Below, in pieces: positions 6,480 to 56,764 of a stretch of DNA of 64,000 nt. The stretch is taken from NCBI RefSeq assembly GCF_003334385.1, contig NZ_QOWN01000008.1. One strand, 5' to 3'. The stretch's first letter is position 1. Each line of letters begins with the position of its first letter. The translations under genes were made by a program, and so were the position numbers. The notes beneath the pieces are model-generated. The model was not told the DNA's origin and did no database searches. It was given only the letters and a program-made list of their open reading frames with translations. The stretch is from Escherichia coli (lineage in GTDB: Bacteria; Pseudomonadota; Gammaproteobacteria; Enterobacterales; Enterobacteriaceae).

Positions 6480-6690
<211 letters not shown>

Positions 6691-6707
6691 CCCAACAGGA
6701 CACACTC

Positions 6708-8092: not shown

Positions 8093-8103
8093 ATTGGTTG
8101 TAG

Positions 8104-9217: not shown

Positions 9218-9224
9218 TATGAGA

Positions 9225-9250: not shown

Positions 9251-9258
9251 CAGTAACA

Positions 9259-24303: not shown

Positions 24304-24341
24304 CAATGATGACAGCCATTACTGGCTGTCAGATTGAAAAT

Positions 24342-24944: not shown

Positions 24945-25136
24945 GTAAACTCCACCTATAGACAAGCGCAACCAGACAATTACCGTGAAATTGAGCTACA
25001 TTTCTGGCGATAATTCGCAGTTGGTGTAATATTAAAAATCCTACGATGTCGGCAAAATGCCTCAAAATTTTGCCAAATGCAAAGCCTAAATAAGAAAAAA
25101 TATAAAAATTTCAATATTTACGTCTAATATTAGTTT

Positions 25137-25153
25137 CTTAAGGTTAAGTTAAT
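25137..25153 (+). promoter_or_regulatory. PmrA (BasR) box-like direct repeat CTTAAG-gttaa-GTTAAT upstream of arnB
   Basis: Hexamer repeat with 5-bp spacer resembling the PmrA box (YTTAAK-N5-YTTAAK), about 80 bp upstream of arnB; arn is the canonical PmrA-activated operon. Confidence 0.55.
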
Positions 25154-25233
25154 ATTCTATCCTTAAAATTTCGCTCCAAATGGCAAAATATACACAACAC
25201 TCTTTATAGCAAATATAAGTGGACAGGTATTCA

Positions 25234-26391
25234 ATGGCGGAAGGAAAAGCAATGTCAGAATTTTTGCCTTTTTCGCGACCAGCAATGGGCGTGGAGGAAC
25301 TCGCTGCAGTTAAAGAGGTTCTCGAATCCGGTTGGATCACAACCGGTCCGAAGAATCAGGCGCTTGAGCAAGCTTTTTGCCAGTTGACGGGAAATCAGCA
25401 TGCCATCGCGGTCAGTTCAGCCACCGCCGGAATGCATATCACGCTAATGGCGTTGAAAATTGGCAAGGGCGATGAAGTGATTACGCCTTCCCTGACCTGG
25501 GTTTCAACCCTCAATATGATTTCCTTGTTGGGTGCAACGCCGGTAATGGTGGATGTCGACCGCGATACGCTGATGGTCACGCCTGAAGCTATCGAGTCAG
25601 CCATTACGCCACGCACTAAAGCCATCATTCCGGTGCATTATGCCGGTGCGCCAGCAGATATTGACGCCATTCGCGCCATTGGCGAACGTTACGGCATCGC
25701 AGTTATCGAAGATGCTGCCCATGCCGTCGGTACGTATTACAAAGGGCGACATATTGGCGCAAAAGGTACCGCTATTTTTTCATTTCATGCCATTAAAAAT
25801 ATTACCTGTGCTGAAGGTGGCCTGATTGTAACTGATAATGAAAACCTTGCCCGCCAGCTACGGATGCTGAAATTTCACGGTCTGGGTGTCGATGCCTATG
25901 ACAGACAAACCTGGGGCCGTGCACCGCAGGCTGAAGTCTTAACACCGGGCTATAAGTACAATCTGACCGATATTAACGCCGCGATTGCCCTGACACAGTT
26001 AGTCAAATTAGAGCACCTCAACACCCGTCGGCGCGAAATTGCCCAGCAATATCAGCAAGCACTGGCAGCTCTCCCCTTTCAGCCATTAAGCCTTCCCGCC
26101 TGGCCGCACGTTCACGCCTGGCATCTGTTTATTATTCGTGTCGATGAACAACGTTGTGGTATCAGTCGCGATGCGTTGATGGAAGCGTTAAAAGAAAGAG
26201 GCATTGGTACCGGGTTACATTTCCGCGCCGCTCACACACAAAAATATTATCGCGAGCGTTTTCCCACGCTGTCGTTACCGAATACCGAATGGAATAGCGA
26301 ACGCATCTGTTCTTTGCCGCTGTTCCCGGATATGACTACCGCCGATGCCGACCATGTCATCACAGCCCTTCAGCAACTCGCAGGACAATAA
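25234..26391 (+). CDS. arnB: UDP-4-amino-4-deoxy-L-arabinose--oxoglutarate aminotransferase (385 aa from this start)
   Basis: ATG at 25234 ([26 protein letters not shown]...); the ORF track uses a GTG at 25219; another in-frame ATG lies at 25252. DegT/ArnB-type PLP aminotransferase. Confidence 0.93.
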
Positions 26392-39967: not shown

Positions 39968-40045
39968 GCGGACCTCTCCCTGTTAAAAGCCTCACATTAT
40001 ACGGGGTACTACAAAAAAAATGCAGTACCCCGGTGTAGGGAGGTT

Positions 40046-40351
40046 TTAACGGCGTGCCAGCAACAGTCCTAGTACCAGCCCAACGGCCGCGCCCACACCA
40101 ATTCCTTGCCAGGGTTTTTCGTGGACGTAGTCATCAGCACGATAAACTGCCTGCTTCGCCCGATAGTAATAACTGTCTGAAGCCTGGCTAACCCGTTTTT
40201 TCACATCATCCAGCGCTTTTTCTGCACGCGCTTTCAGCTCAACATATTTCTGATCGGCGGGATCGCCAGAGGAGCGGAGCACCTCTTCCAGTGTTTCACT
40301 AAGCAGCGTCAGGTCGTCATCGATACGTGTATCACCAAACTGATTAGACAT
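40046..40351 (-). CDS. elaB: Ribosome/membrane-associated tail-anchored stress protein ElaB (DUF883 family, 101 aa)
   Basis: ORF 40046..40351; C-terminal transmembrane anchor GIGVGAAVGLVLGLLLARR. Confidence 0.9.
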   Translation of the reverse strand: MSNQFGDTRIDDDLTLLSETLEEVLRSSGDPADQKYVELKARAEKALDDVKKRVSQASDSYYYRAKQAVYRADDYVHEKPWQGIGVGAAVGLVLGLLLARR

Positions 40352-40405
40352 TCTCGTTCTCCATTTGCGTAAAACCTGTCACTAACTATAGACAAGGGTT
40401 GTTGA

Positions 40406-40867
40406 TTACGCCTGAATTACCTCGCGTGCCATCCCAATGTGTGGGATACCATCTTCTTCATAGACCTCCGTCACAGGGATAAAACCGAAACTCTGGTAGA
40501 AGTTTTGCAGATGCGCCTGCGCCCCGAGGTAAACAGGCTTATCAGGCCAGTGATGCGTACATGTTTCGAGTGTTTTACTCATCAGCTGCTGCCCCACTTT
40601 TTCGCCACGCAACGCTTCACTGACAATCACCCGACCTATAACGACCGGCTCAAGATCATCATCACTTTTCAGAATCCTCGCATACGCCACCAGTTCATCA
40701 TTTTTCCAACCGAGAATATGGCGATTATCCCCCGTCAAATCATCACCATCGATATCCTGATAAGGGCAATTCTGCTCGACAACAAACACCGCGCAACGCA
40801 GTTGTAATAAGGCATAAAGCTGGGAAACCGATAATTCAGAGTGATGCAGATCTTGCCATTCAATCAT
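40406..40867 (-). CDS. elaA: GNAT-family N-acetyltransferase ElaA (153 aa)
   Basis: ORF 40406..40867; translation matches recalled ElaA. Confidence 0.9.
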   Translation of the reverse strand: MIEWQDLHHSELSVSQLYALLQLRCAVFVVEQNCPYQDIDGDDLTGDNRHILGWKNDELVAYARILKSDDDLEPVVIGRVIVSEALRGEKVGQQLMSKTLETCTHHWPDKPVYLGAQAHLQNFYQSFGFIPVTEVYEEDGIPHIGMAREVIQA

Positions 40868-40931
40868 AATGCTCTCCTTTTAGATGTATGCCTTATACTA
40901 GCCGGAATATTTTTTGAAACGTGATGAACTC

Positions 40932-41849
40932 ATGGAATTAATTTTTTTAGGTACTTCAGCCGGTGTGCCAACCCGCACGCGCAATGTCACGGCAATATTG
41001 CTTAACCTGCAACATCCGACCCAGAGCGGACTTTGGTTGTTTGACTGCGGTGAAGGCACCCAGCATCAGCTACTGCATACCGCCTTTAACCCTGGAAAAC
41101 TGGACAAGATTTTTATCAGTCACCTTCATGGCGATCATCTTTTTGGTTTACCCGGCTTGCTGTGCAGTCGTTCTATGTCAGGCATTATCCAACCCTTAAC
41201 GATTTATGGTCCGCAAGGTATCCGTGAATTTGTGGAAACCGCGCTGCGGATTAGCGGCTCATGGACCGATTATCCGCTGGAAATTGTCGAAATTGGCGCT
41301 GGCGAAATTCTCGATGATGGCCTGCGCAAAGTAACCGCTTATCCGCTGGAACACCCACTGGAATGTTATGGCTATCGTATTGAAGAACATGATAAACCGG
41401 GTGCATTAAATGCCCAGGCATTAAAAGCTGCTGGCGTGCCGCCTGGCCCACTGTTTCAGGAATTAAAAGCGGGCAAAACAATCACGCTGGAAGATGGAAG
41501 GCAGATTAACGGCGCAGATTACTTAGCTGCTCCAGTGCCAGGTAAAGCGCTCGCTATTTTCGGCGATACCGGCCCCTGCGATGCCGCACTTGACCTGGCT
41601 AAAGGTGTCGATGTCATGGTGCACGAAGCGACGCTGGATATAACCATGGAAGCCAAAGCCAATAGTCGCGGCCATAGCTCTACACGCCAGGCTGCGACAC
41701 TAGCCCGTGAGGCTGGAGTCGGCAAGCTAATCATTACCCACGTCAGCTCGCGCTATGATGACAAAGGTTGTCAGCACCTGTTACGTGAATGCAGGTCAAT
41801 TTTCCCGGCGACTGAACTGGCGAATGATTTCACCGTGTTTAACGTTTAA
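40932..41849 (+). CDS. rbn: RNase BN / RNase Z (metallo-beta-lactamase fold tRNA 3'-processing nuclease, 305 aa)
   Basis: Start ATG at 40932 ([24 protein letters not shown]...); the ORF track starts 6 codons upstream at 40914. Zinc-binding motif HLHGDH. Confidence 0.92.
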
Positions 41850-41866
41850 CTCTGCTTATTATTAAA

Positions 41867-41889
41867 AACAGGGCGAAACTTGCCCTGTT
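41867..41889. terminator. Hairpin aacagggcgaaacttgccctgtt downstream of rbn, with the T-run (TTTTT) on the minus-strand side
   Basis: 9-bp perfect stem with 5-nt loop; the plus strand is followed only by ttat, whereas the reverse complement is followed by tttttaataataa. Confidence 0.45.
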
Positions 41890-42036
41890 ATCGCAACCCG
41901 CGCTACATATATCCACCCACACAGGCATATTGAGCGATTTTTGATATTTATTCATCTCCTTACGCACTATATTCAGAGCAATAAGTTGCCTCTTTTCATC
42001 TTGATTCAGCACAACCTTTGCAACTAAAAGGAGCCC

Positions 42037-43246
42037 ATGATGGTTACAGTTGTCAGCAATTATTGTCAATTATCTCAAACGCAACTCAGTCAGACATTTG
42101 CAGAAAAATTTACTGTGACCGAGGAATTACTGCAGTCTTTAAAAAAAACAGCGTTATCCGGAGATGAAGAAAGCATTGAGTTACTGCATAATATTGCGTT
42201 AGGTTATGATAAATTTGGGAAAGAAGCTGAAGATATTCTTTACCATATTGTTAGAACCCCAACAAATGAGACCCTATCGATTATCCGACTTATCAAAAAT
42301 GCTTGTTTAAAATTATATAATCTGGCACATATCGCAACCAACTCCCCCCTCAAATCACATGATTCAGATGATCTCCTGTTCAAAAAACTATTCTCCCCTT
42401 CGAAATTAATGACAATTATCGGTGATGAAATTCCTCTTATATCTGAAAAACAGTCGCTTTCAAAGGTGCTTTTAAATGATGAGAATAATGAACTGAGTGA
42501 TGGTACAAACTTCTGGGATAAAAATCGTCAATTAACCACAGATGAAATAGCTTGCTATCTTCAGAAGATCGCCGCTAATGCAAAAAATACTCAAGTCAAT
42601 TATCCTACTGGTCTCTACGTCCCCTACTCCACCAGAACTCACCTGGAAGACGCTCTCAATGAAAATATTAAGAGCGATCCATCATGGCCGAATGAAGTCC
42701 AGTTATTCCCCATAAATACTGGCGGACACTGGATATTAGTTTCGCTACAGAAAATAGTAAATAAAAAAATAATAAACTACAAATAAAATGCGTCATATTC
42801 AACTCATTGCGTGCACTAGGCTATGATAAAGAAAATTCACTTAAGCGTGTCATTAATAGTTTTAATTCTGAACTCATGGGAGAAATGTCGAATAATAATA
42901 TAAAAGTTCATTTAAATGAACCAGAGATAATATTTTTACATGCCGATCTTCAGCAATACTTAAGCCAAAGTTGCGGTGCATTTGTGTGCATGGCAGCCCA
43001 GGAAGTGATTGAACAAAGGGAAAGCAATTCTGACAGCGCCCCCTATACGTTATTAAAAACTATGCTGACAGATTTAAAAAATATTCAGCAGAAGAGCAGT
43101 ACGAAATTGATTTTCAACATCGACTGGCAAACAGAAATTGTTATTTAGATAAATATGGCGATGCAAATATCAATCATTATTATAGAAACTTAGAAATAAA
43201 ACACTCACAACCCAAAAATAGAGCATCCGGCAAAAGAGTGAGTTAA
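42037..43246 (+). pseudogene. elaD: elaD-like CE-clan (Ulp1/SseL-type) deubiquitinase gene, interrupted by two apparent -1 frameshifts in A-homopolymers
   Basis: Three consecutive open segments in frames 1, 0 and 2: 42037..42786 (ORF track, 249 aa), 42807..43148 (ORF track, 113 aa; frame open from 42765), and 43034..43246 (my own translation, ...[54 protein letters not shown]). Frame changes coincide with A7 (42763-42769) and A6 (43076-43081). Adding one A at each restores a single 1212-nt, 403-codon ORF, the length I recall for K-12 ElaD. Confidence 0.7.
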
Positions 43247-43316
43247 CATCATTGTTAATTAATTCGACCAGTCAGCAAATATGCTGACTGGTCGAACATA
43301 GTTTGCTAAACAGTCA

Positions 43317-45044
43317 TCACTGACTGATGTCAGTCACACCATCCGCCAGTTCAATCAGGCGAATAAATTCCGCCCTGTAACCCTGTGGATCTTCCCCTTT
43401 TGCCTGCTGAGCCCACTGTTTGATCTGCTGCCAGGAGGTATTGTTCAGGTATTCAGAACCGCGTAACTTTTGCCCATATGCAGCTACTGCTGCGCGAAAA
43501 CGCATATCTTCAGAGGGCGCGTTTATTGTTGGCCCCAGCGGGAATTCAACTAACTGACTTTCTTTTCCCTGCGGGTATTTCCAGCGAATTTTTAACCAGG
43601 CCAGTTCTTTCGTTTTGTCCGATTTCGCTAATTTGTTATCCGGGGCATAGCGTAACTTATCAATTGATGCTTTTTGCCCGTTCAGCGTTAATTCGAATAA
43701 CAACGTTATATGTTTGCCTGCGCCTATATCCCCTGCATCAACGTTGTCGTTATTAAAATGTTCCACCCGAAGTTGGCGCTTTTCATAACCAATCTGACGG
43801 TATTCCGTTACCCACGCGGGGTTAAACTCAATTTGCGCTTTGACATCTTTTGCTACGGTAATCAACATCTGCCGCATTTCACTATTCAATACTTTCTGCG
43901 CTTCAGAGAGGGTATCAATGTAGCTGTAGTTGCCGTTACCAACATCGGCAATTCGCACCATCATTGCCTCGTTGTAATTGCTATTCCCCACGCCAAACGT
44001 CGACAGAGTAACACCAGACTCCCGCTGTTTTTTGACCATTGATTCAATCGATTTTGGATCGTCAATGCCAACGTTAAAGTCACCGTCAGTGGCTAATAAA
44101 ATGCGATTGATGCCGCCCTTAATAAACCCCTTCGTCGCCTGCTGATAAGCCAGTTCCAGCCCGGCACCGCCATTGGTACTGCCTTCGGCATCCAGCGAAT
44201 CAATTGCGGCATTAATTTCCGCCTTATGACTCCCGGAGATAGAAGGCAATGCAATACGGGAGTCGCCAGCGTAGGTCACGATGGCAATGTTATCCTGCTC
44301 ACGAAGTTCTTTGACCAATAATTTCAACGAAGACTGGATAAGTGGCAAACGTTCATCAGAAATCATTGAACCAGAAGTGTCGATAAGAAAGACCAGATTA
44401 GAAGCTGGTAACTCTTCACTTTTGCGATCTTTCGCCAGGATATCAACTTTCAGCAATGTTCGCTGTTCATTCCATGGTGCAGGTGCCAATTCGTAGCGCA
44501 TAGCGAAAGGTATTGGCTTAGAGGCCGGAATAGATTGTTTGTCTTTGATATCCCAATCAGACGGGAAATAATTGACTATCTCCTCCACCCGCACAGCGTC
44601 TGGCGGAGGTAACAGCCCTTGATTGAGGAAACGCCTTACATTCGCATAACTGCCAGTGTCAACGTCAAGACTAAACGTCGCCAACGGATTTTGCGCTACC
44701 TGCTTAACCGGATTATCATCGAACTGCTGGTAGCGAGCGGTTCCTGGATTTGCGATATGTGTAGCTTTTGCTTTAGCCGCTCTTGCAAATGTTGGCGCTT
44801 CCTGCAATCGCCCCTGTAAAGCCTGTTTGTCTGAATATTGTTGCACTTCTTGCTGGGCCAAGGCTTTCGCGGCGGCGGCGCTTTGCTCAGCCTCTTTTAT
44901 TGCAGCTTGCTGCGCGGCAAGCACTTGCTGCTCTGTGGGAGTACTGGGTTGTTGTTGCTGACTTTCCTTATTCTCAGGTTGCGGCCCACATCCTGACAAA
45001 ATCAAACTACTCATAAGCAACATGATTATATTTTTATTTCGCAT
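43317..45044 (-). CDS. yfbK: Lipoprotein with von Willebrand factor type A (vWA) domain, YfbK (575 aa)
   Basis: ORF 43317..45044; lipobox LILSGC at the N-terminus; Gln/Ala-rich low-complexity linker; vWA MIDAS motif in ...NLVFLIDTSGSM... Confidence 0.9.
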   Translation of the reverse strand: MRNKNIIMLLMSSLILSGCGPQPENKESQQQQPSTPTEQQVLAAQQAAIKEAEQSAAAAKALAQQEVQQYSDKQALQGRLQEAPTFARAAKAKATHIANPGTARYQQFDDNPVKQVAQNPLATFSLDVDTGSYANVRRFLNQGLLPPPDAVRVEEIVNYFPSDWDIKDKQSIPASKPIPFAMRYELAPAPWNEQRTLLKVDILAKDRKSEELPASNLVFLIDTSGSMISDERLPLIQSSLKLLVKELREQDNIAIVTYAGDSRIALPSISGSHKAEINAAIDSLDAEGSTNGGAGLELAYQQATKGFIKGGINRILLATDGDFNVGIDDPKSIESMVKKQRESGVTLSTFGVGNSNYNEAMMVRIADVGNGNYSYIDTLSEAQKVLNSEMRQMLITVAKDVKAQIEFNPAWVTEYRQIGYEKRQLRVEHFNNDNVDAGDIGAGKHITLLFELTLNGQKASIDKLRYAPDNKLAKSDKTKELAWLKIRWKYPQGKESQLVEFPLGPTINAPSEDMRFRAAVAAYGQKLRGSEYLNNTSWQQIKQWAQQAKGEDPQGYRAEFIRLIELADGVTDISQ

Positions 45045-45181
45045 ATAAAATCCTTTTAAATAAACTCAGGCACCAGACATAAAATATACTCTTTGTATAA
45101 TCCTGCTAATCTTAATAAAATACAATATCGAAACCCATAGCAAATAATGATTCAACAACGCAACCCATTAATAATTTGCAT

Positions 45182-46153
45182 ATGAAAAAAATAATCTTTG
45201 CTTTTATTATATTATTTGTGTTTTTACTCCCTATGATTATTTTTTACCAACCCTGGGTCAATGCATTACCGTCAACGCCCCGACACGCAAGTCCTGAGCA
45301 ATTAGAAAAAACAGTTCGTTATCTTACACAAACTGTGCATCCACGTAGTGCCGACAATATTGATAATCTGAATAGGTCCGCAGAATATATAAAAGAGGTC
45401 TTTGTCAGTAGCGGTGCCAGAGTTACCTCGCAGGACGTCCCCATTACGGGTGGCCCCTACAAAAACATTGTTGCTGATTATGGTCCTGCCGATGGACCGC
45501 TGATTATTATTGGTGCGCATTATGACTCTGCCAGCAGTTATGAAAACGATCAATTGACCTATACGCCGGGCGCGGATGATAACGCCAGCGGTGTGGCAGG
45601 ATTACTCGAACTGGCACGTTTGTTACATCAGCAAGTACCGAAAACAGGCGTGCAGCTGGTCGCCTATGCGTCGGAAGAACCGCCCTTCTTTCGTAGCGAT
45701 GAAATGGGGAGCGCGGTGCATGCAGCTTCGCTTGAGCGTCCAGTGAAATTAATGATAGCACTGGAGATGATTGGCTATTACGACTCTGCGCCTGGAAGCC
45801 AGAATTACCCTTACCCGGCAATGTCCTGGCTTTATCCCGATCGGGGAGACTTTATTGCCGTGGTCGGCAGAATACAGGATATCAACGCCGTTCGTCAGGT
45901 AAAAGCGGCATTGTTGTCATCTCAGGATTTATCTGTTTATTCTATGAATACCCCAGGGTTTATTCCCGGTATTGATTTCTCTGACCACCTGAATTATTGG
46001 CAACACGATATTCCCGCCATAATGATTACTGACACCGCTTTTTATCGTAATAAACAATACCACTTGCCCGGTGATACCGCAGACAGATTGAATTATCAGA
46101 AAATGGCTCAGGTAGTGGATGGTGTTATAACTTTGTTATACAACAGTAAATAA
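45182..46153 (+). CDS. yfbL: M28-family (aminopeptidase-like) zinc peptidase YfbL (323 aa from this start)
   Basis: Start ATG at 45182 (MKKIIFAFIILFVFLLPMIIF...); the ORF track uses an ATG two codons upstream at 45176. M28-type motifs GAHYDS and DDNASG. Confidence 0.88.
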   Translation: MKKIIFAFIILFVFLLPMIIFYQPWVNALPSTPRHASPEQLEKTVRYLTQTVHPRSADNIDNLNRSAEYIKEVFVSSGARVTSQDVPITGGPYKNIVADYGPADGPLIIIGAHYDSASSYENDQLTYTPGADDNASGVAGLLELARLLHQQVPKTGVQLVAYASEEPPFFRSDEMGSAVHAASLERPVKLMIALEMIGYYDSAPGSQNYPYPAMSWLYPDRGDFIAVVGRIQDINAVRQVKAALLSSQDLSVYSMNTPGFIPGIDFSDHLNYWQHDIPAIMITDTAFYRNKQYHLPGDTADRLNYQKMAQVVDGVITLLYNSK

Positions 46154-46255
46154 TAAAAATTTCTCGAGGCGGGTCCAGAAAAAGCGACATGCACATTTTA
46201 TTTTCCCTCATCTGTTTTAAGATGCGAAACATGAAATTCAACGGAGGAAAAATAA

Positions 46256-46759
46256 ATGGGAATGATTGGCTATTTTGCAGAAATTGACTCAGAAAAGATT
46301 AACCAACTGCTTGAGTCTACTGAAAAACCTTTGATGGATAATATACATGACACGCTTTCAGGATTACGCCGGCTGGATATTGATAAACGCTGGGATTTTT
46401 TACACTTTGGGCTGACAGGCACCTCTGCTTTTGATCCCGCGAAGAATGATCCGCTGAGTCGTGCCGTGCTTGGTGAACACAGCCTCGAAGATGGCATAGA
46501 TGGCTTCCTTGGATTGACCTGGAATCAGGAGTTATCCGCGACAATCGACCGACTGGAATCACTGGATCGAAATGAACTGCGTAAACAGTTTTCCATTAAG
46601 CGACTCAATGAAATGGAGATTTATCCGGGAGTGACCTTTTCAGAAGAGTTAGAGGGGCAACTCTTTGCCTCGATCATGCTTGATATGGAAAAGCTGATTA
46701 GCGCGTATCGACGTATGCTGCGACAAGGGAATCATGCGCTGACGGTTATTGTTGGGTGA
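46256..46759 (+). CDS. yfbM: Uncharacterised protein YfbM (DUF1877-like, 167 aa)
   Basis: ORF 46256..46759; matches recalled YfbM; no signal peptide evident. Confidence 0.87.
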   Translation: MGMIGYFAEIDSEKINQLLESTEKPLMDNIHDTLSGLRRLDIDKRWDFLHFGLTGTSAFDPAKNDPLSRAVLGEHSLEDGIDGFLGLTWNQELSATIDRLESLDRNELRKQFSIKRLNEMEIYPGVTFSEELEGQLFASIMLDMEKLISAYRRMLRQGNHALTVIVG

Positions 46760-47031
46760 TATAGCTTGATGCCTGGGGGAGAAAGACCCATTAGTTAAGA
46801 TTTACGCCAGGATCATCTTGAAAAAATCTTTAACCATGGTCCGGTTTTTATCCCCTTGTATAAATATTACTAAATGCTTGCTTAGTCGCATTGTTAAATG
46901 CAATACCGTATATTCGGTATGTAACAGCGATATCCTCTGTGCTGGCAACGATCTGTCATGCTTGATGAAAACGGAATTGAACCTGTCATTACCAGGTAGA
47001 TAAAAAGCCTGTTCAATTTTGGGATTATTTT

Positions 47032-47748
47032 TTATAACTCGTGTCTGTTATGGCGACACGGGAAAACATCAATATTGTCCTTCACAAATTGCAGTAATAT
47101 AGAATCAACCTCTCTTGCAAGTTGGTCACAATGTATTATAAGCATTTTGAATATGTCATCCTCTGTAATCTCGTGAAAATTTTCGGCCTTGTCTTTTAGC
47201 TCATCATATCGGATTCTTGCAGTAACCATTTTTTGGGCGAGTTCTAATAACCCCAAAGCTTGCAATTGCTGGTGAGTATGATCACTTTCAAAAAATATCC
47301 CACACTCCATTCCTTCCCAACCAACATATTCATGCCATTCATAAACCAGCATAAATGTTTGTAAAACTGGCGGTAATAATTGGATATCTGCAAAACCAAA
47401 CCAAAACTTACGCTTGAGATCCCACTCATATTCAATCGCCAATGCTATATTGTTTAAGGCATCTCCGGCATCCTTATTTTTACGCAAAATCAATTCCGTC
47501 AGTGTATAGCGTTGTTCATCAATACGCCGAAGAGCTTCTGCAATATCATAGTTTGTAGCCAACAAAACATTCTCTGCTTCCTGATGAGTGACGTCTGCTT
47601 TTGCCGTCAATATATTGATTTGGTCAATATGAAACAACTTGATGGCTTCATCAACATCACCGCCAGTCCTCTCTAACAAACGTCTGGCAACCTGGATACC
47701 GACAGGTACGTTCTTCCGAAGTTTACGAATTTCACTTAACCATTCCAT
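47032..47748 (-). CDS. yfbN: Uncharacterised protein YfbN (238 aa) with two N-terminal UBA/TS-N-like helical motifs
   Basis: ORF 47032..47748; N-terminus VGIQVARRLLERTGGDVDEAIKLF resembles the EF-Ts N-terminal UBA-like (TS-N) motif; a second UBA-like stretch is THQEAENVLLATNYDIAEALRRI. Judged by eye. Confidence 0.85.
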   Translation of the reverse strand: MEWLSEIRKLRKNVPVGIQVARRLLERTGGDVDEAIKLFHIDQINILTAKADVTHQEAENVLLATNYDIAEALRRIDEQRYTLTELILRKNKDAGDALNNIALAIEYEWDLKRKFWFGFADIQLLPPVLQTFMLVYEWHEYVGWEGMECGIFFESDHTHQQLQALGLLELAQKMVTARIRYDELKDKAENFHEITEDDIFKMLIIHCDQLAREVDSILLQFVKDNIDVFPCRHNRHEL

Positions 47749-47902
47749 GTCAAACCCCTTTAAATATTTATGATATTAAATATAACAACGTCTGGATAAC
47801 GACCCGGCCTGACTGAATATCTCACGTTTTCCTGCTTAACATTCATGTTATGATGCTCTTGAAACTAATAATACGTATGGAATTGTCACTATTTATCTGC
47901 TA

Positions 47903-48379
47903 ATGAATTCAAACAATGTCATTCGTTTGATGAATATATTATTTCAGGGAATAATTATGACACCTTTAGAACGCATTACCCAACTTGTTAATATCAATGG
48001 TGATGTTAATAATCCTGATACTCCTCGTCCATTGTTATCTCTTGAGGATTTTTTTATTGACAATAATATCCATGGTTCAATATGTTGCAATGTGATTCCA
48101 GAACAATCTCCGCAAGCTATCTATCACCATTTTCTGAAAATACGTGAGCGTAACAATGTTAGTGATGTTTTGGTAGAAATTACGATGTTCGATGACCCAG
48201 ACTGGCCCTTTAGTGAAAGTATTTTAGTTATCACCACTGCTTCACCAGAAGAAGTTCAGAGCTGGTTTGTAGAAGAAATTGCCCCTGATGAGTGCTGGGA
48301 AGGATGGTCAGAAGATACGGAGCATGGATGGGTTGAAGTCCCTGTGGGTATGCATCCGGTTACTTGTTGGTGGGATTAA
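47903..48379 (+). CDS. yfbO: Uncharacterised protein YfbO (158 aa from 47903; 140 aa if started at the in-frame ATG at 47957)
   Basis: ORF 47903..48379; acidic, Trp-rich C-terminus (...ECWEGWSEDTEHGWVEVPVGMHPVTCWWD); start codon uncertain. Confidence 0.78.
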   Translation: MNSNNVIRLMNILFQGIIMTPLERITQLVNINGDVNNPDTPRPLLSLEDFFIDNNIHGSICCNVIPEQSPQAIYHHFLKIRERNNVSDVLVEITMFDDPDWPFSESILVITTASPEEVQSWFVEEIAPDECWEGWSEDTEHGWVEVPVGMHPVTCWWD

Positions 48380-48434
48380 AACATTTATATAAACAGATAA
48401 GCGGATGTTTACATAAATTTTTATGTGAAGGAAC

Positions 48435-49286
48435 ATGATGAAACTTATTCCTCGCAGTAGTGATATTTCACCTGGCATTGATGGAATTTGCCCGGGGCCT
48501 TTTCCTCCGAACGGATTTACCGTACTTACAGATGCAGCATATGGTAACGGAGACTGTTTCGGTTTGTACTGGCCTATTGGTCAGGAGCATAAACTACCTA
48601 TAGTGTGCGAAACGTACCATGACGAATGGCGAATCGTACCTGCCTTTTCCAGCATTAAGAAGTTCGAAGAATGGCTGGAAGTGAATGATGATGCTCCCCA
48701 TGAAAATGGCATCAGCATCGAAGATCAAGACTTTGCAGCAAATCTCTTCCGTGTTGCTCGGAAATGTCTTTCAACGGGAAGGCTTGATGACGCACTGCCA
48801 CTGTTACAGCGAGCAACAGAACAATTGCCTGAAGTCAGCGAATATTGGTTAGCACTGGCAATCCAGTATCGCCGATGTAAAAAAACAGAAGCTGCAGCAC
48901 AGGCTGCGCTTAATGCTTATCTTGGCAATTGGGCATTTGGTGTTCCTGACAATAAAGTCATTCATTTGCTGTCACAGGCCGCAGATGTCCCGAATTTCCA
49001 GGATGATCCTGTGATTCAGTGCATTAAAGAACAAGGATTAGATCTTAGCTTTGGAGGAACAAAGGAAAATAATAATTACCCCTTGATGCAGATGTGTGTT
49101 GATACTTATTTTGCGCAGAGAAAACCGCTTCAGGCATTAACCCTGTTACATAATTATGCCTGGATAATGTCCAGTGAAACGACTGCATTTCAGGAACGCT
49201 ATGATTTTAATATCGATGAATGGCGGGCAAAATTCAGGCAGTTATGTTTAGAGTATTTTGGCGATAGTCGTACACAGTTCACTTAA
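48435..49286 (+). CDS. yfbP: Uncharacterised protein YfbP (283 aa), possibly TPR-like helical
   Basis: ORF 48435..49286; a second in-frame ATG at 48438 is possible. Confidence 0.85.
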   Translation: MMKLIPRSSDISPGIDGICPGPFPPNGFTVLTDAAYGNGDCFGLYWPIGQEHKLPIVCETYHDEWRIVPAFSSIKKFEEWLEVNDDAPHENGISIEDQDFAANLFRVARKCLSTGRLDDALPLLQRATEQLPEVSEYWLALAIQYRRCKKTEAAAQAALNAYLGNWAFGVPDNKVIHLLSQAADVPNFQDDPVIQCIKEQGLDLSFGGTKENNNYPLMQMCVDTYFAQRKPLQALTLLHNYAWIMSSETTAFQERYDFNIDEWRAKFRQLCLEYFGDSRTQFT

Positions 49287-49324
49287 CGCTCTGCGTCTAT
49301 CTACTATCCCTTCTTTTTCAGAAA

Positions 49325-49350
49325 AACCGCCGAGCATGTCGGCGGCTTTC
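49325..49350 (-). terminator. Rho-independent terminator at the 3' end of the nuo operon (downstream of nuoN)
   Basis: Palindrome ccgccgagcatgtcggcgg (49327-49345); on the minus strand the stem is followed by TTTTTCTG; also lies downstream of convergent yfbP. Confidence 0.65.
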
Positions 49351-49369
49351 TGACTTACAAAGTAACAGA

Positions 49370-50827
49370 TTACATCAGCGGCATTGCCAAACGCACAATG
49401 CTAATCAGCGGTTGTGGCCATACACCCAGCACCAGTACCAACAGTGCAGAGATCAGCACAACGATACCGCCCGCGCTGTACTGCCAGTTTGATGGTGCAT
49501 CGCGACCCGGTTGTTCCGGGGCGTGAAGATACAGGCTCACCGCCACGCGCAGGTAGTAGTAGAGGCCGATTGCCGAACCGACAACCACGGCACCCACCAG
49601 CCACCACAAGTGTGCCTGGACACCGACCGCCAGCACGTAGAACTTACCGATAAAGCCCAGCGTCATCGGGATACCGGCCAGAGACAGCATCATCACCGTC
49701 ATCACTGCCGCGAGGATCGGACGATGCCAGAACAGACCGCGGTAAGAGAACAGGGAATCAGCATCCGGGCCACGATACGGGCTGGACATCAGGCTGACCA
49801 CGCCGAACGCGCCGAGGCTGCTGAACAGATAACCGGCCAGGTAAACCCCTACCGCTTCCATCGACATCTCGCCGGTTTGCAGCGCAATCAGCGCTACCAG
49901 CAGATAGCCGAGGTGAGAGATAGATGAGTAACCGAGCAGACGTTTGATATTGGTCTGGCTCAGCGCCATCAGGTTACCGAAGATGATGGAGGCAAAGGCG
50001 ATAATCGCCAGCACCACGCGAATCGCTTCGCTGTCACCCACCGGTGCGTAGAGGAACAGACGCATCACCACACCGAAGATAGCGATTTTGCTCGCCGTCG
50101 CCAGGAAAGTGGAAACCGGCGCAGGCGCGCCCTGGTATACGTCTGGCGTCCACAGGTGGAACGGCACCAGAGAGAGTTTGAAGCCGAGGCCAACAATCAT
50201 CAGGCCGAAACCTGCCAGCAACAGCGGCTCGTTGAGCATACCGTCGCCAAGGTTTTTACCCAACGCGACAAACGACAGGTCGCCAGACTGCGCATACACC
50301 AGCGCCATACCAAACAGCAGGAAAGAAGACGCTGCGGCAGAAAGGATGGTGTATTTGATACTGGCTTCCAGTGAACGTTTCTGGCGGAAAGCGTAACCGA
50401 CCAGGCCAAACAGCGGCAAAGAGATCAGTTCGATACCGAGGAACAGAGACGCCAGATGGTTGGCATTCGCCAGCAGGATCCCGCCCAGCGCGGCAATTAA
50501 CACCAACAGGTAGAACTCATCCTTGTTGTCGTTATAGCCTTCAAGCCACGGGTAGGCGAAAGTACAGGTGGCGAGGCTCGCCAACAATACCAGCCCGGTG
50601 TAAAGCATGGCGAAACCATCAACGCGCATCAGCGGCGTAACGTCCATAGCGCCCGCCTGGCCAACAAACCAGAGCGAAACCAGCGCCGCGTTAAGCCCAA
50701 TAACCGAGAGCGTAGCGTTGAGGAAATGATTGCGTCGCCACGCAATGGAGAGCATCACAACCACCACCGTCAAGCCGACGATCAGCAACGGTAGCAGTGC
50801 GATCAGGTTTTGTGGAGTTATTGTCAT
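49370..50827 (-). CDS. nuoN: NADH:quinone oxidoreductase (complex I) subunit N (485 aa)
   Basis: ORF 49370..50827; polytopic antiporter-like subunit. Confidence 0.95.
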
Positions 50828-50833
50828 GGCGAT

Positions 50834-52363
50834 TTACGGCCTTGTAGTAGTAACGGAATTAACAAACCACTGCTGGATATTGCCAATCGCGGAGTGCGAG
50901 GTATCCAGAATCGGCTGCGGATAGAAGCCCAGCAGTACCAGCAGCACCACCAGCAACAGGATCATAAACAGCTCACGCAGCGACATCCCTGGCAGTTCCT
51001 GGCTGGCAATCTGGCTTTTCGCTTTACCGAAGTAAGCGCGATGTAACATCGCCAGCGAATAAACAGATGCAAAGACCAGCCCAAAGGTAGAGATAACGGT
51101 AATCACCGGTACAACCTGGAAGCTGCCGAACAGAATCATAAATTCGCCGACGAAGTTACCGGTGCCAGGCATCCCAAGCGTTGCCACCGCAAAGAACAGC
51201 GACAGTGCTGGCAGCCATTTCATCTTGCTCCACAGACCGCCCATCATGCGCATGTCGCGGGTATGGATACGTTCATAAAGCTGACCACAAAGAATAAACA
51301 GACCCGCCGCCGACAAACCGTGCGCAATCATCTGGATTACCGCGCCCTGGTAGGCCAACTGGCTGCCGGTGTAGATAGCAATCAGCACGAAGCCCATGTG
51401 GGAAACCGAGGTGTAGGCGATCAGACGTTTGATATCGGTCTGGGCGAAGGCCATCCACGCACCGTAGAAGATGCCGATAACACCCAGCCACATAGCAATT
51501 GGCGCGAACTCTGCCGACGCGTTCGGGAACAGCGGCAGGGAGAAACGCAGCAAACCGTAAGCGGCAGTTTTCAGCAAGATCCCCGCGAGGTCAACGGAAC
51601 CGGCGGTCGGAGCCTGGGAGTGCGCATCCGGCAGCCAGCCATGCAGCGGAACCACCGGCATTTTGACTGCGAAGGCGATGAAGAAGCCCAGCATTAACAG
51701 GTATTCCACACCACTGGACATTGGCGTATTCAGCAGCTCTTCATAGTTGAAGGTCCAGACGCCGGTCGCATTGTAGTGAACAAAAACCAGCGCCAGGATG
51801 GCAATCAACATCACCAGGCCACTCGCCTGGGTGTAAATGAAGAACTTGGTTGCCGCCGTGATACGCGTTTTACCGTCAGAGGCTTTATGCCCCCACAGTG
51901 CGATCAGGAAGTACATCGGCACCAGCATCATTTCCCAGAAGAAGAAGAACAGGAACATGTCGATGGCAAGGAACACGCCGATAACGCCGCCCAGGATCCA
52001 CATCAGGTTGAGGTGGAAGAAGCCCTGATATTTTTCGATCTCTTTCCACGAACATAGTACCGCCAGCACACCGAGCAGACCGGTCAGCACGACCATCAGC
52101 AGCGACAGCCCGTCAATGGCGAGATGAATAGAGATACCAAAACGCGGGATCCACGGCATGTCGAATTCAGACTGCCACTGCGGAATTCCGGCGGATTGCG
52201 TCAGTGAATAACCGCCCTGCAACCACAGTTGCAGCGACAGCGCCAGCGTCAATCCCATGGTGATCAGCGCGATCCAGCGTGGCACCTTGACGCCAAAGCG
52301 TTCGGTCTGCCAGCACAGGAAGCCGCCAATAAAGGGAATTAATATTAGCCAGGGTAGTAACAT
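50834..52363 (-). CDS. nuoM: NADH:quinone oxidoreductase subunit M (509 aa)
   Basis: ORF 50834..52363. Confidence 0.96.
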   Translation of the reverse strand: MLLPWLILIPFIGGFLCWQTERFGVKVPRWIALITMGLTLALSLQLWLQGGYSLTQSAGIPQWQSEFDMPWIPRFGISIHLAIDGLSLLMVVLTGLLGVLAVLCSWKEIEKYQGFFHLNLMWILGGVIGVFLAIDMFLFFFFWEMMLVPMYFLIALWGHKASDGKTRITAATKFFIYTQASGLVMLIAILALVFVHYNATGVWTFNYEELLNTPMSSGVEYLLMLGFFIAFAVKMPVVPLHGWLPDAHSQAPTAGSVDLAGILLKTAAYGLLRFSLPLFPNASAEFAPIAMWLGVIGIFYGAWMAFAQTDIKRLIAYTSVSHMGFVLIAIYTGSQLAYQGAVIQMIAHGLSAAGLFILCGQLYERIHTRDMRMMGGLWSKMKWLPALSLFFAVATLGMPGTGNFVGEFMILFGSFQVVPVITVISTFGLVFASVYSLAMLHRAYFGKAKSQIASQELPGMSLRELFMILLLVVLLVLLGFYPQPILDTSHSAIGNIQQWFVNSVTTTRP

Positions 52364-52452
52364 GGCGATCTTTATTCCTTGTAAAAGTCCCGTCAGGACC
52401 GGATTTTCAACGAATTCTCACGACAGAAAATTCTCTTCGGACTGGGGGTAGT

Positions 52453-52489
52453 GTCGGATGCACCGCGAAGGCGGCTTATCCGACCTACG
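52453..52489. repeat. REP element in the nuoL-nuoM intergenic region
   Basis: gtcggatgcaccgcgaaggcggcttatccgacctacg matches REP architecture (GCCGGATGCGGCG...CTTATCCGGCCTACG-like). Confidence 0.6.
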
Positions 52490-52526
52490 TTCTTATATGC
52501 CCAGGGGCAATCCCACAATCCTTAAC

Positions 52527-54368
52527 TCAACGCAGTACCATCAACAGTGCCAGCACCACGACCGCACCGATGCTCATGGATGCCACATACCAGCGCAGAT
52601 AGCCGTTCTCACTTAACAGCAGACCTTTACCTGCAAAGCGGGAAAGGACAGCCGGGATGTTCATCATTGAGTTCAGCGGATCGCGTTTCAGCAACCAGGC
52701 AATACCCAGGAACGGCTTGACGAACACTTTGTCATACAGCCAGTCAAATCCCCAGGCGTTGTACCACCAGGTGCCCAGCAGACGGCCCGGCGCACTGTTG
52801 GCGATGGAGGTCACCAGAGTACGTTTACCCAGCCACAGCCAGGCTGCCAGCAGAATGCCGACCACCGCGACCACGCCAGAGGTAATTTCCAGGGTCAACA
52901 TGCTGCCGTGCGCCAGTTCCGTCGTTTGCGGAAGCACGCCCTGCAGCGGCGGTACAATCAGTGCGCCAACGAAGGTGGAAAGGATCAGCAGCACAATCAG
53001 CGGCAGGCTGTGAGTTACCCCTTTCACGGCGTGAGCGTGAATTTGTTCTTTTCCGTGGAAGACGATGAAAATCATACGGAAGGTGTAGAGCGAGGTCATA
53101 AACGCACCGACCAGACCTGCCACCATCAGATTGATATGACCATTCGCCATCGCACCCGCGAGGATCTCATCCTTACTGAAGAAGCCCGCAGTGACCAGCG
53201 GTAGTGCCGACAGTGCTGCGCCGCCCACCAGGAAGCAGAGATAAACCAGCGGAATAGATTTACGCAGACCGCCCATCTTGAAGATGTTCTGTTCGTGATG
53301 GCAGGCCAGAATGACGGAACCGGATGCCAGGAACAGCAGCGCTTTAAAGAACGCGTGGGTCATCAAGTGGAAAATCGCCGCATCCCATGCCTGCACGCCA
53401 AGCGCGAGGAACATGTAGCCAATCTGGCTCATGGTAGAGTAAGCGAGAACACGTTTGATGTCGGTCTGTACCAGCGCGGCAAAACCGGCCAGCAGCAGCG
53501 TAACCGCCCCGACAATACCCACCAGATGCAGAACTTCCGGCGTCATCAGGAACAGGCCGTGGGTACGGGCGATCAGGTAGACACCCGCGGTTACCATGGT
53601 TGCGGCGTGGATCAGCGCGGAGACAGGCGTCGGACCCGCCATCGCGTCGGCAAGCCATGTCTGCAACGGCAACTGCGCAGATTTACCGACCGCACCGCCC
53701 AGCAGCATCAGCGTCGCCCACATCAGCATGTTATTGCCGTCAGCAAAGTGCGCTGGTGCCAGTTCCACCATTTCGCGGAAGTTCAGGGTGCCCAGTTCGT
53801 TGTAAAGAATGAACAGTGCGAAAGCGAGGAACACGTCACCCACACGGGTCACGACGAACGCTTTCATTGCCGCTGCGCCATTCTTCGGATCGGTGTAATA
53901 GAACCCGATCAGCAGATAGGAGCACAGGCCCACGCCTTCCCAGCCGAGGTACATCAGCAGCAGGTTGTCGGCAAGCACCAGAACCACCATGCTGGCGATG
54001 AACAGGTTGGTGTAAGCGAAGAAGCGAGAGTAGCCCTCTTCACCGCGCATATACCAGGAGGCGTACATGTGAATAAGGAAACCCACACCAGTGACCACCG
54101 AGAGCATGGTCAGCGACAGGCCGTCCAGCACCAGGTTAAAACCGATGTTAAAGTCGCCTACCGACATCCACGTCCACAGCGGCTGGCTGTATGTCTGCTC
54201 GCCGTTAGCGAAGAAATCAACGCCGATAAAGGCGGTTACCAGCGCCGCCAGGCCCACAGAGCCTACGCCGACGATCGCCGAGACGTTTTCAGACCAGCGC
54301 CCACGGGAGAATGCCAGCAGGACGAAGCCAATCAATGGCAAAATAATGGTTAAGGCAAGCATGTTCAT
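52527..54368 (-). CDS. nuoL: NADH:quinone oxidoreductase subunit L (613 aa)
   Basis: ORF 52527..54368. Confidence 0.96.
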
Positions 54369-54667
54369 CCGCGCATCTCACTTACTGAATCGATGTTCAG
54401 GTTCTGGCGACGACGGTGAAGTTGCAGCAGCAGCGCAAGGCCGATACTCGCTTCTGCCGCCGCGAGGCTGATGGCGAGAATGTACATCACCTGACCGTCG
54501 GTCTGGCCCCAGTAGCTTCCGGCGACCACGAAGGCCAGCGCGGAGGCGTTAATCATGATTTCCAGACCAATCAACATAAACAGCAGATTGCGACGGATAA
54601 CCAGACCGGTTAAGCCAAGAACGAATAAGATTGCCGCGAGGATCAGTCCATGTTGTAAGGGGATCAT
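54365..54667 (-). CDS. nuoK: NADH:quinone oxidoreductase subunit K (100 aa)
   Basis: ORF 54365..54667; 4-nt overlap with nuoL. Confidence 0.95.
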
Positions 54668-55218
54668 GCGTGCTCCTCCGTTTTTCTTTTCGCGCTGTCG
54701 TCTTTACGATTGCTCAGCACTTCACCCGCACGCTCTTCACGACCGACGTGGAAGGCCACAACCAGACCTGCGAGCAGCAGCATAGAAGCCAGTTCCACCG
54801 CCAGTACGTAAGGCCCGAACAGCGTAATACCCACTGCTTTAGCACTGATTGGCGTACCGTCGATACCCTGATCGTTAACACCGAGGATGGCGTAAACAAT
54901 CACCACCAGCATGATGGCCGACAAAATTGCCGGACCAATCCACACCTGCGGTTTCAGCCACTGGCGTTCCTGTTCGATTTCTGAACCGCCCAGGTTGAGC
55001 ATCATCACCACGAACACGAACAGCACCATAATGGCACCCGCGTAGACGATAATTTCCAGCGCACCGGCGAAGTAAGCGCCCAGTGAGAAGAACACCCCGG
55101 AAATCGCCAGCAGCGAAATAATCAGGTACAGCAGTGCGTGTACCGGATTGGTATGGGTGATCACTCGCAAGGTCGCAAGTATGGCTATCAGGCCACAGAT
55201 ATAAAAAGCGAACTCCAT
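54664..55218 (-). CDS. nuoJ: NADH:quinone oxidoreductase subunit J (184 aa)
   Basis: ORF 54664..55218. Confidence 0.95.
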
Positions 55219-55229
55219 TGCCCCTCTCC

Positions 55230-55772
55230 TTACGGTAACAGGCTCTTGACGTCGATAGGCTTGGCTTCGTTCTCTGCTTCGCCCTTATCTTTGCCGTCGA
55301 TTGCCATACCTGCCATCCGGTAGAAGTTATATTCCGGGTATTTGCCCGGACCGGAGATCAGCAGATCCTCTTTCTCGTAAACCAGATCCTGGCGCTTGTA
55401 TTCCCCCATTTCGAAATCCGGGGTTAACTGAATCGCCGTGGTCGGACAGGCTTCTTCGCACAGACCACAGAAAATGCAGCGTGAGAAGTTGATGCGGAAA
55501 AATTCCGGGTACCAGCGACCGTCTTTGGTTTCTGCTTTTTGCAGCGAGATACAGCCGACCGGGCAGGCTACCGCGCAGAGGTTACAGGCTACGCAACGCT
55601 CTTCGCCGTCCGGGTCGCGGGTCAGAACGATACGACCACGATAACGGGGCGGCAGATAGACCGGCTCTTCCGGGTACATTCGCGTTTCGCGTTTGGCGAA
55701 CGCGTGCAGGCCGATCATCCAGATACTACGAACCTGGGTGCCGAAACCTACTAACAATTCTTTTAAGGTCAT
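55230..55772 (-). CDS. nuoI: NADH:quinone oxidoreductase subunit I (2x[4Fe-4S] ferredoxin-like, 180 aa)
   Basis: ORF 55230..55772; motifs CIACKLCEAVCP / [16 protein letters not shown]. Confidence 0.96.
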
Positions 55773-55786
55773 GGTCTTATTGCCCC

Positions 55787-56764
55787 TTATTGCGCCTGCC
55801 AGAGAATGACAGCCGCCGTTACCAGCAAGTTGATCAGCGTCAGCGGCAGGCAGATTTTCCAGCCGAAGGACATTACCTGGTCATAACGCGGACGCGGTAA
55901 CGACGCACGAATCAAAATGAACATCATCATAAAGAACGCGGTTTTCAGCGCGAACCAGATGAATGGCGGTAACAACGGGCCTTGCCAGCCACCGAAGAAC
56001 AGCGTCACCATCAATGCAGAGATGGTCACAATCCCGATGTACTCACCCACGAAGAACAGACCGAACTTCATACCGGAATATTCAATGTGGTAACCATCCG
56101 CCAGTTCCTGCTCGGCTTCCGGCTGGTCAAACGGGTGACGGTGACATACCGCCACGCCCGCGATGGCAAAGGTAATAAAACCAAAGAATTGCGGGATAAC
56201 GTTCCACACATGCGCCTGGCTGTTGACGATGTCGGTCATGTTGAATGAACCGGCCTGCGCCACCACGCCCATCAAGGAAAGCCCGAGGAACACTTCGTAG
56301 CTCAGGGTCTGCGCAGAAGCACGCATCGCACCCAGCAACGAGTATTTGTTGTTACTTGACCAGCCCGCAAACAGCACCGCGTAAACCGCCAGACCTGCCA
56401 TCATCAGGAAGAACAAAATCCCGATGTTCAGGTCGGCAACCACCCAACCCGGACTGACTGGCACAATCGCAAAGGCCAGCAGCAGCGAGGTAAAGGCAAT
56501 CATCGGTGCCAGGGTAAAGATGACGCGATCCGAGAATTTCGGGATCCAGTCTTCTTTAAAGAACATTTTGATCATGTCCGCAACCAGCTGGAGCGAACCG
56601 CCCCAGCCAACACGGTTAGGTCCGTAACGGTTCTGGAACAGACCCAGCAGGCGACGTTCGCCAAAGCTCATGAATGCCCCGCAGGTGACAACCACCAGCA
56701 GGATCACCACCGCTTTGAGGATGGTCAGCAGGATCTCAATCAGTTCCGGTGATATCCAACTCAT
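55787..56764 (-). CDS. nuoH: NADH:quinone oxidoreductase subunit H (325 aa)
   Basis: ORF 55787..56764. Confidence 0.96.

Follow-up and report, generated by a model that had tools for sequence, protein, structure and literature searches.

Introduction

Between the conserved genes rbn and nuoN, the chromosome of Escherichia coli carries a stretch of seven genes, elaD, yfbK, yfbL, yfbM, yfbN, yfbO and yfbP, which we analysed at positions 41850-49369 of a 64-kb window (the whole piece of DNA under study). Touchon et al. are said to have found in 2009 that the accessory genes of E. coli gather between conserved core genes at hot spots. Such variable chromosomal junctions share with the rbn-nuoN junction the conserved flanks, AT-rich and strain-specific content, multiple alleles and frequent insertion of insertion sequence (IS) elements. 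The present junction differs from them in being small and in having no prophage or integrative element, and its genes yfbN and yfbK are older than the genus.

Orphan immunity genes and polyimmunity loci, surveyed by Zhang et al. (2012; PMC3482391), form a second group of described systems. They have in common with the right-hand part of the stretch that genes for small, acidic, apparently non-enzymatic cytoplasmic proteins of unrelated families adjoin each other, that the content varies between strains of one species and that no toxin gene is present in the cluster. DUF1877, PF27222 and the families of YfbN and YfbP were not found in the available part of that survey text (PMC3482391).

Several genes of the stretch have been studied before. 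A preprint on retron-Sen2 reported that yfbN, when overexpressed, scored among the blockers of RcaT, the retron toxin; yfbO, itself below the cut-off, was included in the blocker set through linkage (bioRxiv 10.1101/2020.06.22.160242). The toxin blockers RacC and T4 Dmd described there resemble yfbN in suppressing RcaT on overexpression and in being small proteins of unknown fold; they are encoded by phage or prophage, whereas yfbN is chromosomal, syntenic across genera and without a phage homologue. A second preprint reported that Keio deletions of yfbO and yfbL are resistant to phage N4, can be complemented in trans and are sensitive to seven other phages (bioRxiv 10.1101/2025.09.29.679331). 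ElaD, in turn, belongs to the ElaD/SseL family of CE-clan deubiquitinases (PMC1847702; PMC12575377). It is an active deubiquitinase in vitro with the catalytic residue Cys313 (PMC1847702), and differs from SseL in that no secretion route or host target has been demonstrated for it. Its patchy distribution, with absence from phylogroup B2 and extraintestinal pathogenic E. coli (ExPEC) strains, has already been published (PMC12575377).

Results and discussion

A strain-variable junction of independent modules

Comparison of 5,426 complete E. coli genomes revealed that the genes between rbn and nuoN do not co-vary as one unit. The gene yfbM was present in 5,356 genomes (98.7%), elaD in 4,187 (77%), yfbL in 3,293 (61%), yfbK in 2,514 (46%) and the yfbN-O-P block in 946 (17%; yfbN taken alone, about 18%). 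At least 80% of positions 41500-49700 were found in only 931 genomes, and the stretch is therefore not universally conserved. These counts bear out the caution expressed in the initial annotation of the window, namely that there was no sign of a single coherent system.

Seven arrangements of the junction were read. Apart from the full K-12 set, these were elaD-yfbK-yfbL-yfbM; yfbK-yfbL-yfbM; elaD followed by a frameshifted yfbL remnant and yfbM, without yfbN, in O157:H7; a 111-bp elaD stub followed by yfbL-yfbM in a urinary isolate; yfbK-yfbL-yfbM-yfbN'-yfbO', without yfbP and elaD, in strain EC28; and elaD-yfbL-yfbM, an SMI1/KNR4-type gene and then yfbN'' in strain 2013C-4282. The breakpoints are discrete and reused: all alleles without yfbP or without yfbNOP rejoin at 49322, at the nuoN terminator hairpin (49322-49369, no strand assigned; AAAAACCGCCGAGCATGTCGGCGGCTTT), as located by junction alignment and breakpoint mapping. 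The left edge of the yfbNOP indel lies 2-3 nt past the yfbM stop (46760), and in strains without elaD the positions 41852 and 43344 are separated by an unrelated 144-nt sequence. The gap between the flanking genes ranges from 0.07 to 7.5 kb, and IS insertions at the junction were seen in several E. coli strains. The gene beside yfbN also differs by lineage, being yfbO with yfbP in K-12-type alleles, yfbO alone in the EC28 type and an SMI1/KNR4-type gene in the E. fergusonii type.

These data resolve the stretch into at least four modules: elaD, the divergent envelope pair yfbK/yfbL, yfbM, and yfbN with its variable neighbour. They establish a long-lived, strain-variable junction with a core transcription unit on either side (rbn and the nuo operon, at its end), where several unrelated accessory modules undergo loss, replacement and exchange independently of each other. 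Deletion and co-expression studies should not treat the patch as a single system; yfbN and its variable neighbour are the coherent unit that deserves testing. It should be added that the patch is a routine AT-rich accessory feature of E. coli genomes, composed of already named K-12 y-genes next to an elaD of published variability.

Two database records of the yfbNOP genes should be read with care. CP137936.1, a 365-kb E. coli 'plasmid' in PLSDB, carries yfbO at 100% and yfbP at 99.6% identity and looks like chromosomal sequence that was taken for a plasmid on deposition or in assembly; a single plasmid place also turned up when the E. coli genomes were searched. JAEWTL010000023.1, a 2.8-kb contig of a metagenome-assembled genome ('MAG: Bacillota bacterium') in the GTDB representative set, encodes YfbN and YfbO at 100% and YfbP at 99.6% identity to E. 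coli, and is almost certainly an E. coli contamination of the bin.

Age, synteny and selection

Homologues of yfbN, yfbK and yfbL occur at the same junction in other enterobacteria, and much of the patch is therefore old and fast-evolving. E. fergusonii has the order nuoN, yfbN, a gene for a protein of 191 amino acids (aa), yfbM, yfbK, a cheV-like gene and rbn. One distant enterobacterium, with NuoN 93% and YfbN 46% identical, has the yfbN homologue as the sole gene between nuoN and rbn; another has nuoN, a yfbN-like gene, two unknown genes, yfbL, yfbK, a cheV-like gene and rbn, and a further species rbn, yfbK, yfbL and yfbO. The initial annotation had described an islet between core genes. 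This description suggests one acquired block, which is not supported in view of the prevalence of yfbM and of the homologues at the same place in other enterobacteria.

Between the K-12 and EC28 alleles, YfbN shows 79% protein identity and a synonymous divergence (dS) of 0.44, against 100% protein identity and a dS of 0.09 for the adjacent nuoN. Ratios of non-synonymous to synonymous divergence (dN/dS) were 0.25 for yfbN, 0.31 for yfbO, 0.20 for yfbK, 0.23 for yfbL and 0.07 for yfbM, which points to purifying selection on these intact genes. With ratios of 0.07-0.31, they are functional genes in the form of old divergent alleles at a recombining junction, and neither debris nor one recent import. 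High divergence, like low GC and poor codon adaptation, is common to all the modules of the junction.

On the rbn side, the core genes are themselves unusually divergent: between two E. coli strains dS was 0.94 in elaA and 0.16 in rbn, and rbn reached a dS of 2.2 against E. fergusonii, with only 0.09-0.16 in nuoN and nuoM. The old alleles seem to reach past the yfb patch on this side only. The cheV-like gene (CheW and response-regulator domains), found between rbn and yfbK in E. fergusonii and in another enterobacterium and not in the E. coli window, is one more independent module of the junction. In the loci of four relatives, the rbn orthologues carry a precomputed Pfam tag PF23023 (Anti-Pycsar_Apyc1) beside Lactamase_B; on RNase BN this tag probably reflects the shared metallo-beta-lactamase fold and no anti-defence role.

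Composition of the stretch

The window is E. coli chromosome of K-12 type, and positions 41500-49700 are 99.9% identical to MG1655-derived strains, with CFS3292 as the best match. RefSeq annotation of the matching records gives the gene order elaB, elaA, rbn, elaD, yfbK, yfbL, yfbM, yfbN, yfbO, yfbP, nuoN and nuoM, in agreement with the open reading frames (ORFs) of the window. GC content was 0.416 in 41850-49369 and 0.526 in the rest of the window; the stretch is the lowest-GC 7.5-kb frame of the 64 kb, the lowest non-overlapping frame having 0.482. Each of the seven ORFs (GC 0.36-0.47, third-position GC (GC3) 0.31-0.47, local codon adaptation 0.52-0.61) lies below all flanking genes on all three measures. 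Homopolymer runs of at least 6 nt were about three times as frequent as elsewhere in the window (2.26 versus 0.69 per kb), shuffles of the stretch itself giving 1.03 +/- 0.34 per kb. The compositional distinctness first noticed by eye was thus confirmed by measurement, the GC and codon-usage profile being clearly distinguishable from that of the flanking genes. GC also differs between modules, with 0.36-0.39 in elaD, yfbN and yfbO versus 0.45-0.47 in yfbK, yfbL and yfbM.

The annotation of the rbn-nuoN stretch contains no integrase, tRNA or IS element; flanking repeats were at chance level only, and the indel junctions show no target duplication. The Rfam scan of the stretch returned zero matches, promoter- and terminator-like sites were in no excess over shuffle expectation, and the seven proteins had no match to the PADLOC-DB v2 defence models at E <= 0.01.

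Within 40000-51200 the window differs from K-12 at six sites, all of them in 42762-48694, with zero differences in rbn, elaA, elaB, nuoN and nuoM; given how few the differences are, their clustering in the yfb patch may be due to chance. Outside elaD, yfbM has a synonymous change and the substitution A94S, and yfbP the substitution D86A. The window has further low-GC patches, all shorter, at 3001-4000 (0.38), 9001-10000 (0.435) and 24001-26000 (0.44-0.46). The genes of the nuo membrane subunits (50001-57000) show a strongly positive AT skew of 0.16-0.28, which fits the T-rich coding strands of hydrophobic proteins encoded on the minus strand.

Features and relatives of YfbN, YfbO and YfbP

The gene yfbN (47032-47748, minus strand) represents a near-orphan family located beside nuoN in several enterobacterial lineages and tiny in size, with 19 clusters among 5.8 billion. 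In the predicted structure (predicted local distance difference test, pLDDT, 91), residues ~1-80 form two domains of the three-helix UBA fold, which is also that of the N-terminal domains of EF-Ts and NAC, and are followed by an acidic all-helical C-terminal domain. To judge from the model, the latter is probably similar to DMP19 of Neisseria meningitidis (PDB 3WUR; PMC3384305, PMC5722371), a DNA-mimic fold. YfbN differs from DMP19 in the two extra N-terminal UBA-like domains, and the two proteins are 12% identical without a sequence-level relationship: no DMP19-type family was matched in Pfam at E <= 10, and 3WUR was not retrieved in a PDB profile search with YfbN.

The most distant relative of YfbN is encoded on a 33%-GC contig (logan DRR532630_631) by the terminal gene in a run of eleven small same-strand genes (878-8103). 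These are mostly without Pfam matches, and several encode acidic proteins (isoelectric point (pI) 4.2-4.9); a NUDIX and an alpha/beta-hydrolase gene are among them. Such a run may represent orphan genes of immunity type; no toxin gene was seen on the contig. The uncharacterised neighbour genes in the loci of four relatives, including E. fergusonii and DRR532630_631, had no match in NCBIfam. E. fergusonii and 14 E. coli genomes have, next to yfbN, a gene whose product NCBI names SMI1/KNR4, and the 191-aa protein of E. fergusonii gave a marginal match to Pfam SMI1_KNR4 (E 0.0013).

The gene yfbO (47957-48379, plus strand) encodes a protein of 140 aa with a pI of 4.1, a net charge of -21 and no signal peptide, which belongs to Pfam PF27222. 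Its true start is at 47957 and not at that of the 158-aa ORF: family members share the N-terminus MTPLERIT, whereas the extension upstream of it is not conserved. The cluster of the protein itself carries the precomputed PF27222 tag, as do 84 of the 85 clusters among the matches listed, and the motifs GSIxCN, FDDPxWPFS and C-terminal CWWD are all present in the YfbO of the window. Relatives with 46-60% identity over the full length occur in Planctomycetota, Woeseiaceae, Tahibacter, Cellvibrionaceae and others. The fold, modelled with a pLDDT of 94, recurs in many unannotated proteins of ~140 aa in the AlphaFold database, a few of which are labelled DUF4253 or DUF1963; among these fold relatives were one SMI1/KNR4 fusion and one TPR-repeat fusion.

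The evidence from genomic neighbourhoods of YfbO homologues is anecdotal, and a scan of the genome collection with one peptide pattern gave only eight loci, including an E. coli contamination in a MAG. In a 7.8-Mb genome, the homologue stands in a textbook locus of polymorphic toxins, immediately behind genes for an LHH-nuclease toxin and two SUKH immunity proteins; a Tox-REase-5 gene is located upstream. Elsewhere, the homologue was found on a Priestia plasmid among small genes that all share one strand (DUF6678, two DUF4304), in Tahibacter with RadC and GFA on either side and a VapB antitoxin nearby, and beside a prophage module of repressor, ImmA and antirepressor. Two further Pfam-annotated contexts were uninformative, and the plasmid and prophage settings resemble positions of mobile-element cargo. 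A phage origin of YfbN and YfbO was considered and rejected, since neither had a homologue in 50,697 phage genomes (tblastn) or PHROGs and the only match among 2.9 million viral contigs was a weak one for YfbO.

The gene yfbP (48438-49286, plus strand) begins 58 bp downstream of yfbO. Its product of 282 aa has a conserved N-terminal domain with the motif GNGDxFGLYWPxGxE...HDE, followed by a TPR-containing helical region (Pfam TPR_16, E 2.7e-5), and its family counts 203 clusters. Partial relatives are carried close to a replication gene by 26 conjugative plasmids of Morganellaceae (Providencia, Proteus, Morganella). The contexts of YfbP relatives were uninformative, being a patch of low GC with assorted small genes, two short contigs, and the plasmid copies beside RepB and ars genes. 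A SUKH assignment of the N-terminal domain, suggested by the motif GNGD...HDE...FSS..FL, was rejected after three tests: only one of 40 family members matched SUKH_6 in a Pfam scan (E 1.1e-3), the N-terminal profile found nothing in the PDB, and hhalign against SUKH-type sequences gave a probability of 0.4%. A relationship between this domain and YfbO, an idea raised by the TPR fusion among the YfbO fold relatives, was likewise discarded (hhalign probability 0.06%). In the loci examined, no toxin-linked context was found for YfbM, YfbN or YfbP.

A possible inhibitor role of YfbN, YfbO and YfbP

The reading that we favour, and hold to be moderately probable as a whole, combines the mosaic variable junction with YfbN, YfbO and YfbP as acidic binding proteins of inhibitor type. 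At moderate to low confidence, we take the three for cytoplasmic, non-enzymatic, acidic proteins that would bind harmful proteins entering the cell or activated in it and inhibit them stoichiometrically, similar to orphan immunity proteins. Contact-delivered toxins or abortive-infection toxins would be the candidate targets; nucleic acid might be imitated, or the active surface of the target occluded, by YfbN through its DMP19-like acidic domain and by YfbO through its strong negative charge. To the likenesses with polyimmunity loci given above may be added the YfbO homologue in a real LHH-toxin/SUKH array, and the SMI1/KNR4-type gene at the same position in sister lineages.

Such an inhibitor-type role is plausible. 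Our confidence in it is moderate to low: the toxin-linked context of YfbO is a single clear case, the link of YfbN to DMP19 is one of predicted structure only, yfbN was found to block RcaT in a screen by overexpression, and the resistance to N4 of strains deleted for yfbO or yfbL points elsewhere. The locus is not a polyimmunity locus as defined by Zhang et al. and may at most work like one. It was not classed as such because orientation and spacing do not agree: polyimmunity loci are same-strand and tightly spaced, whereas yfbM, yfbN, yfbO and yfbP are oriented +, -, + and + with spacers of 272, 208 and 58 bp. Furthermore, there are only 3-4 candidate genes here, no adjacent recombinase and no known cognate toxin.

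A more specific version, which we regard as rather unlikely, is that yfbN marks a conserved 'slot' by nuoN across Escherichia and related genera, into which interchangeable acidic inhibitor genes (YfbO/PF27222, SMI1/KNR4-type and others) are swapped, and that YfbN and YfbO directly neutralise toxins that target nucleic acid or are regulated by it, such as the retron toxin RcaT. If true, the junction would be an anchored, mixed-orientation depot of orphan immunity genes from families not yet recognised as immunity proteins. Even the more general inhibitor idea, if true, would add the families of YfbN, PF27222 and possibly YfbP to the immunity and anti-toxin repertoire. In any case, the two scattered preprint phenotypes, RcaT blocking and N4 resistance, are now given a structural and comparative frame that points to direct binding experiments.

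Alternative explanations

The alternative that survives best, and which we nonetheless judge unlikely, is ordinary physiology without a conflict role, for example envelope or exopolysaccharide processing by YfbK, YfbL and YfbO that is needed for N4 adsorption, the AT-richness being that of weakly expressed, H-NS-silenced genes. This would account for the N4-specific resistance, complemented in trans, of yfbL or yfbO deletions; it agrees with YfbK being a lipoprotein and YfbL a membrane-anchored peptidase, and with yfbM being near-universal in E. coli and strongly constrained. YfbO, however, is small, acidic and cytoplasmic, without a signal peptide. In addition, 83% of E. coli genomes are without yfbO and 39% without yfbL, so that any such role would be dispensable, and the N4 result is that of a single preprint with no known mechanism.

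Somewhat less credible still is that yfbN-O-P are cargo of a mobile element, serving as counter-defence against abortive-infection toxins or restriction and now stranded in the chromosome. DNA-mimic anti-restriction proteins are typically highly acidic, and the acidity seen here is of that kind. Moreover, yfbN and the linked yfbO were picked as RcaT blockers beside several prophage genes, partial YfbP relatives sit near the replication gene of conjugative plasmids, and YfbO relatives stand next to RadC, on Priestia plasmids and beside a prophage repressor/antirepressor module. Against such an origin speak the nearly empty phage and viral searches for YfbN and YfbO, the chromosomal position of yfbN, which is fixed across genera, and the fact that yfbNOP of E. 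coli was never found on a plasmid, bar one record resembling a mis-assigned chromosome.

The data largely exclude the three remaining explanations. In the first, the seven genes arrived together by horizontal transfer, as one genomic island and one functional unit. This would explain the uniformly low GC and poor codon adaptation over the whole stretch, but is very improbable with prevalences of 17% to 98.7% by gene and every sub-combination in existence, with parts syntenic in other genera, with GC differing between modules, and with integrase, tRNA, IS elements and flanking repeats all absent.

A ubiquitin-related set, in which the deubiquitinase ElaD works with the UBA-domain protein YfbN, was implied by the initial annotation and finds no support in co-occurrence: elaD occurs without yfbN in O157:H7 and yfbN without elaD in EC28, the two genes lie 3.8 kb and three genes apart, elaD is broken in the window, and the UBA fold of EF-Ts and NAC is unrelated to ubiquitin. 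Despite the in vitro activity of ElaD (PMC1847702) and the two UBA-fold domains of YfbN, this idea is extremely improbable.

Equally remote is that the stretch is non-functional, decaying DNA, as the frameshift of elaD in the window, the dN/dS of ~0.5 of elaD, the yfbL remnant of O157:H7 and the IS insertions might suggest; for the intact genes this is already contradicted by the dN/dS of yfbK, yfbL, yfbM, yfbN and yfbO between deeply diverged alleles, by the full-length conservation of YfbO across phyla, and by conserved family motifs, high-confidence fold predictions and reported phenotypes.

elaD, yfbK, yfbL and yfbM

The gene elaD (42037-43247, plus strand) is disrupted in the window into ORF fragments 42037-42786 and 42807-43148. 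Relative to K-12, it has two 1-nt deletions of A, in the A8 run at 42762 (codon 242) and in the A6 run at 43054 (codon ~340), and a C>T change at 43061; the first frameshift lies upstream of the Cys313 codon. The K-12 allele of this gene is ElaD itself, and the intact K-12 protein reaches 455 bits on NCBIfam NF008812 (cut-off 250), whereas the gene of the window carries the two frameshifts and is, as sequenced, a family member by descent without an intact product. CFS3292 has the same first deletion and is annotated as 'frameshifted'. The deletions may be sequencing slippage or assembly errors instead of biology, because Catic et al. (PMC1847702) suspected the same for the apparent elaD pseudogene of strain 53638, which resembled sequencing slippage in an A-rich region. 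Of the initial claim of seven genes in mixed orientation, the gene list and the mixed orientation hold, and the number of intact genes is six, since elaD is frameshifted.

Between the convergent elaD and yfbK, a hairpin with a 13-bp stem (CGACCAGTCAGCA-AATA-TGCTGACTGGTCG; 43265-43294, no strand assigned) was read from the sequence, and is probably a bidirectional terminator. The gene yfbK (43317-45044, minus strand) encodes a lipoprotein, as read from its translation (N-terminal lipobox ...LILSGC), with vWF_A, VWA and YfbK_C domains (PF12450, PF00092 and PF12034 on orthologues). The divergent yfbL (45182-46153, plus strand) encodes a membrane-anchored M28-family metallopeptidase according to RefSeq annotation, with Peptidase_M28 on orthologues; the 137-bp spacer between the two genes has 28% GC.

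In line with the initial annotation, the rbn-nuoN stretch is the least characterised part of the locus, and a literature search on DUF1877, DUF4253, DUF4304 and DUF4375 found no functional information. The gene yfbM (46256-46759, plus strand) encodes a DUF1877 protein (Pfam PF08974, E 7.3e-35, residues 1-163) with a full-length match (E 2e-108) to PDB 1RYL, which is E. coli YfbM, a solved structure with unassigned function. By both its prevalence and its dN/dS, yfbM is the most conserved member of the patch.

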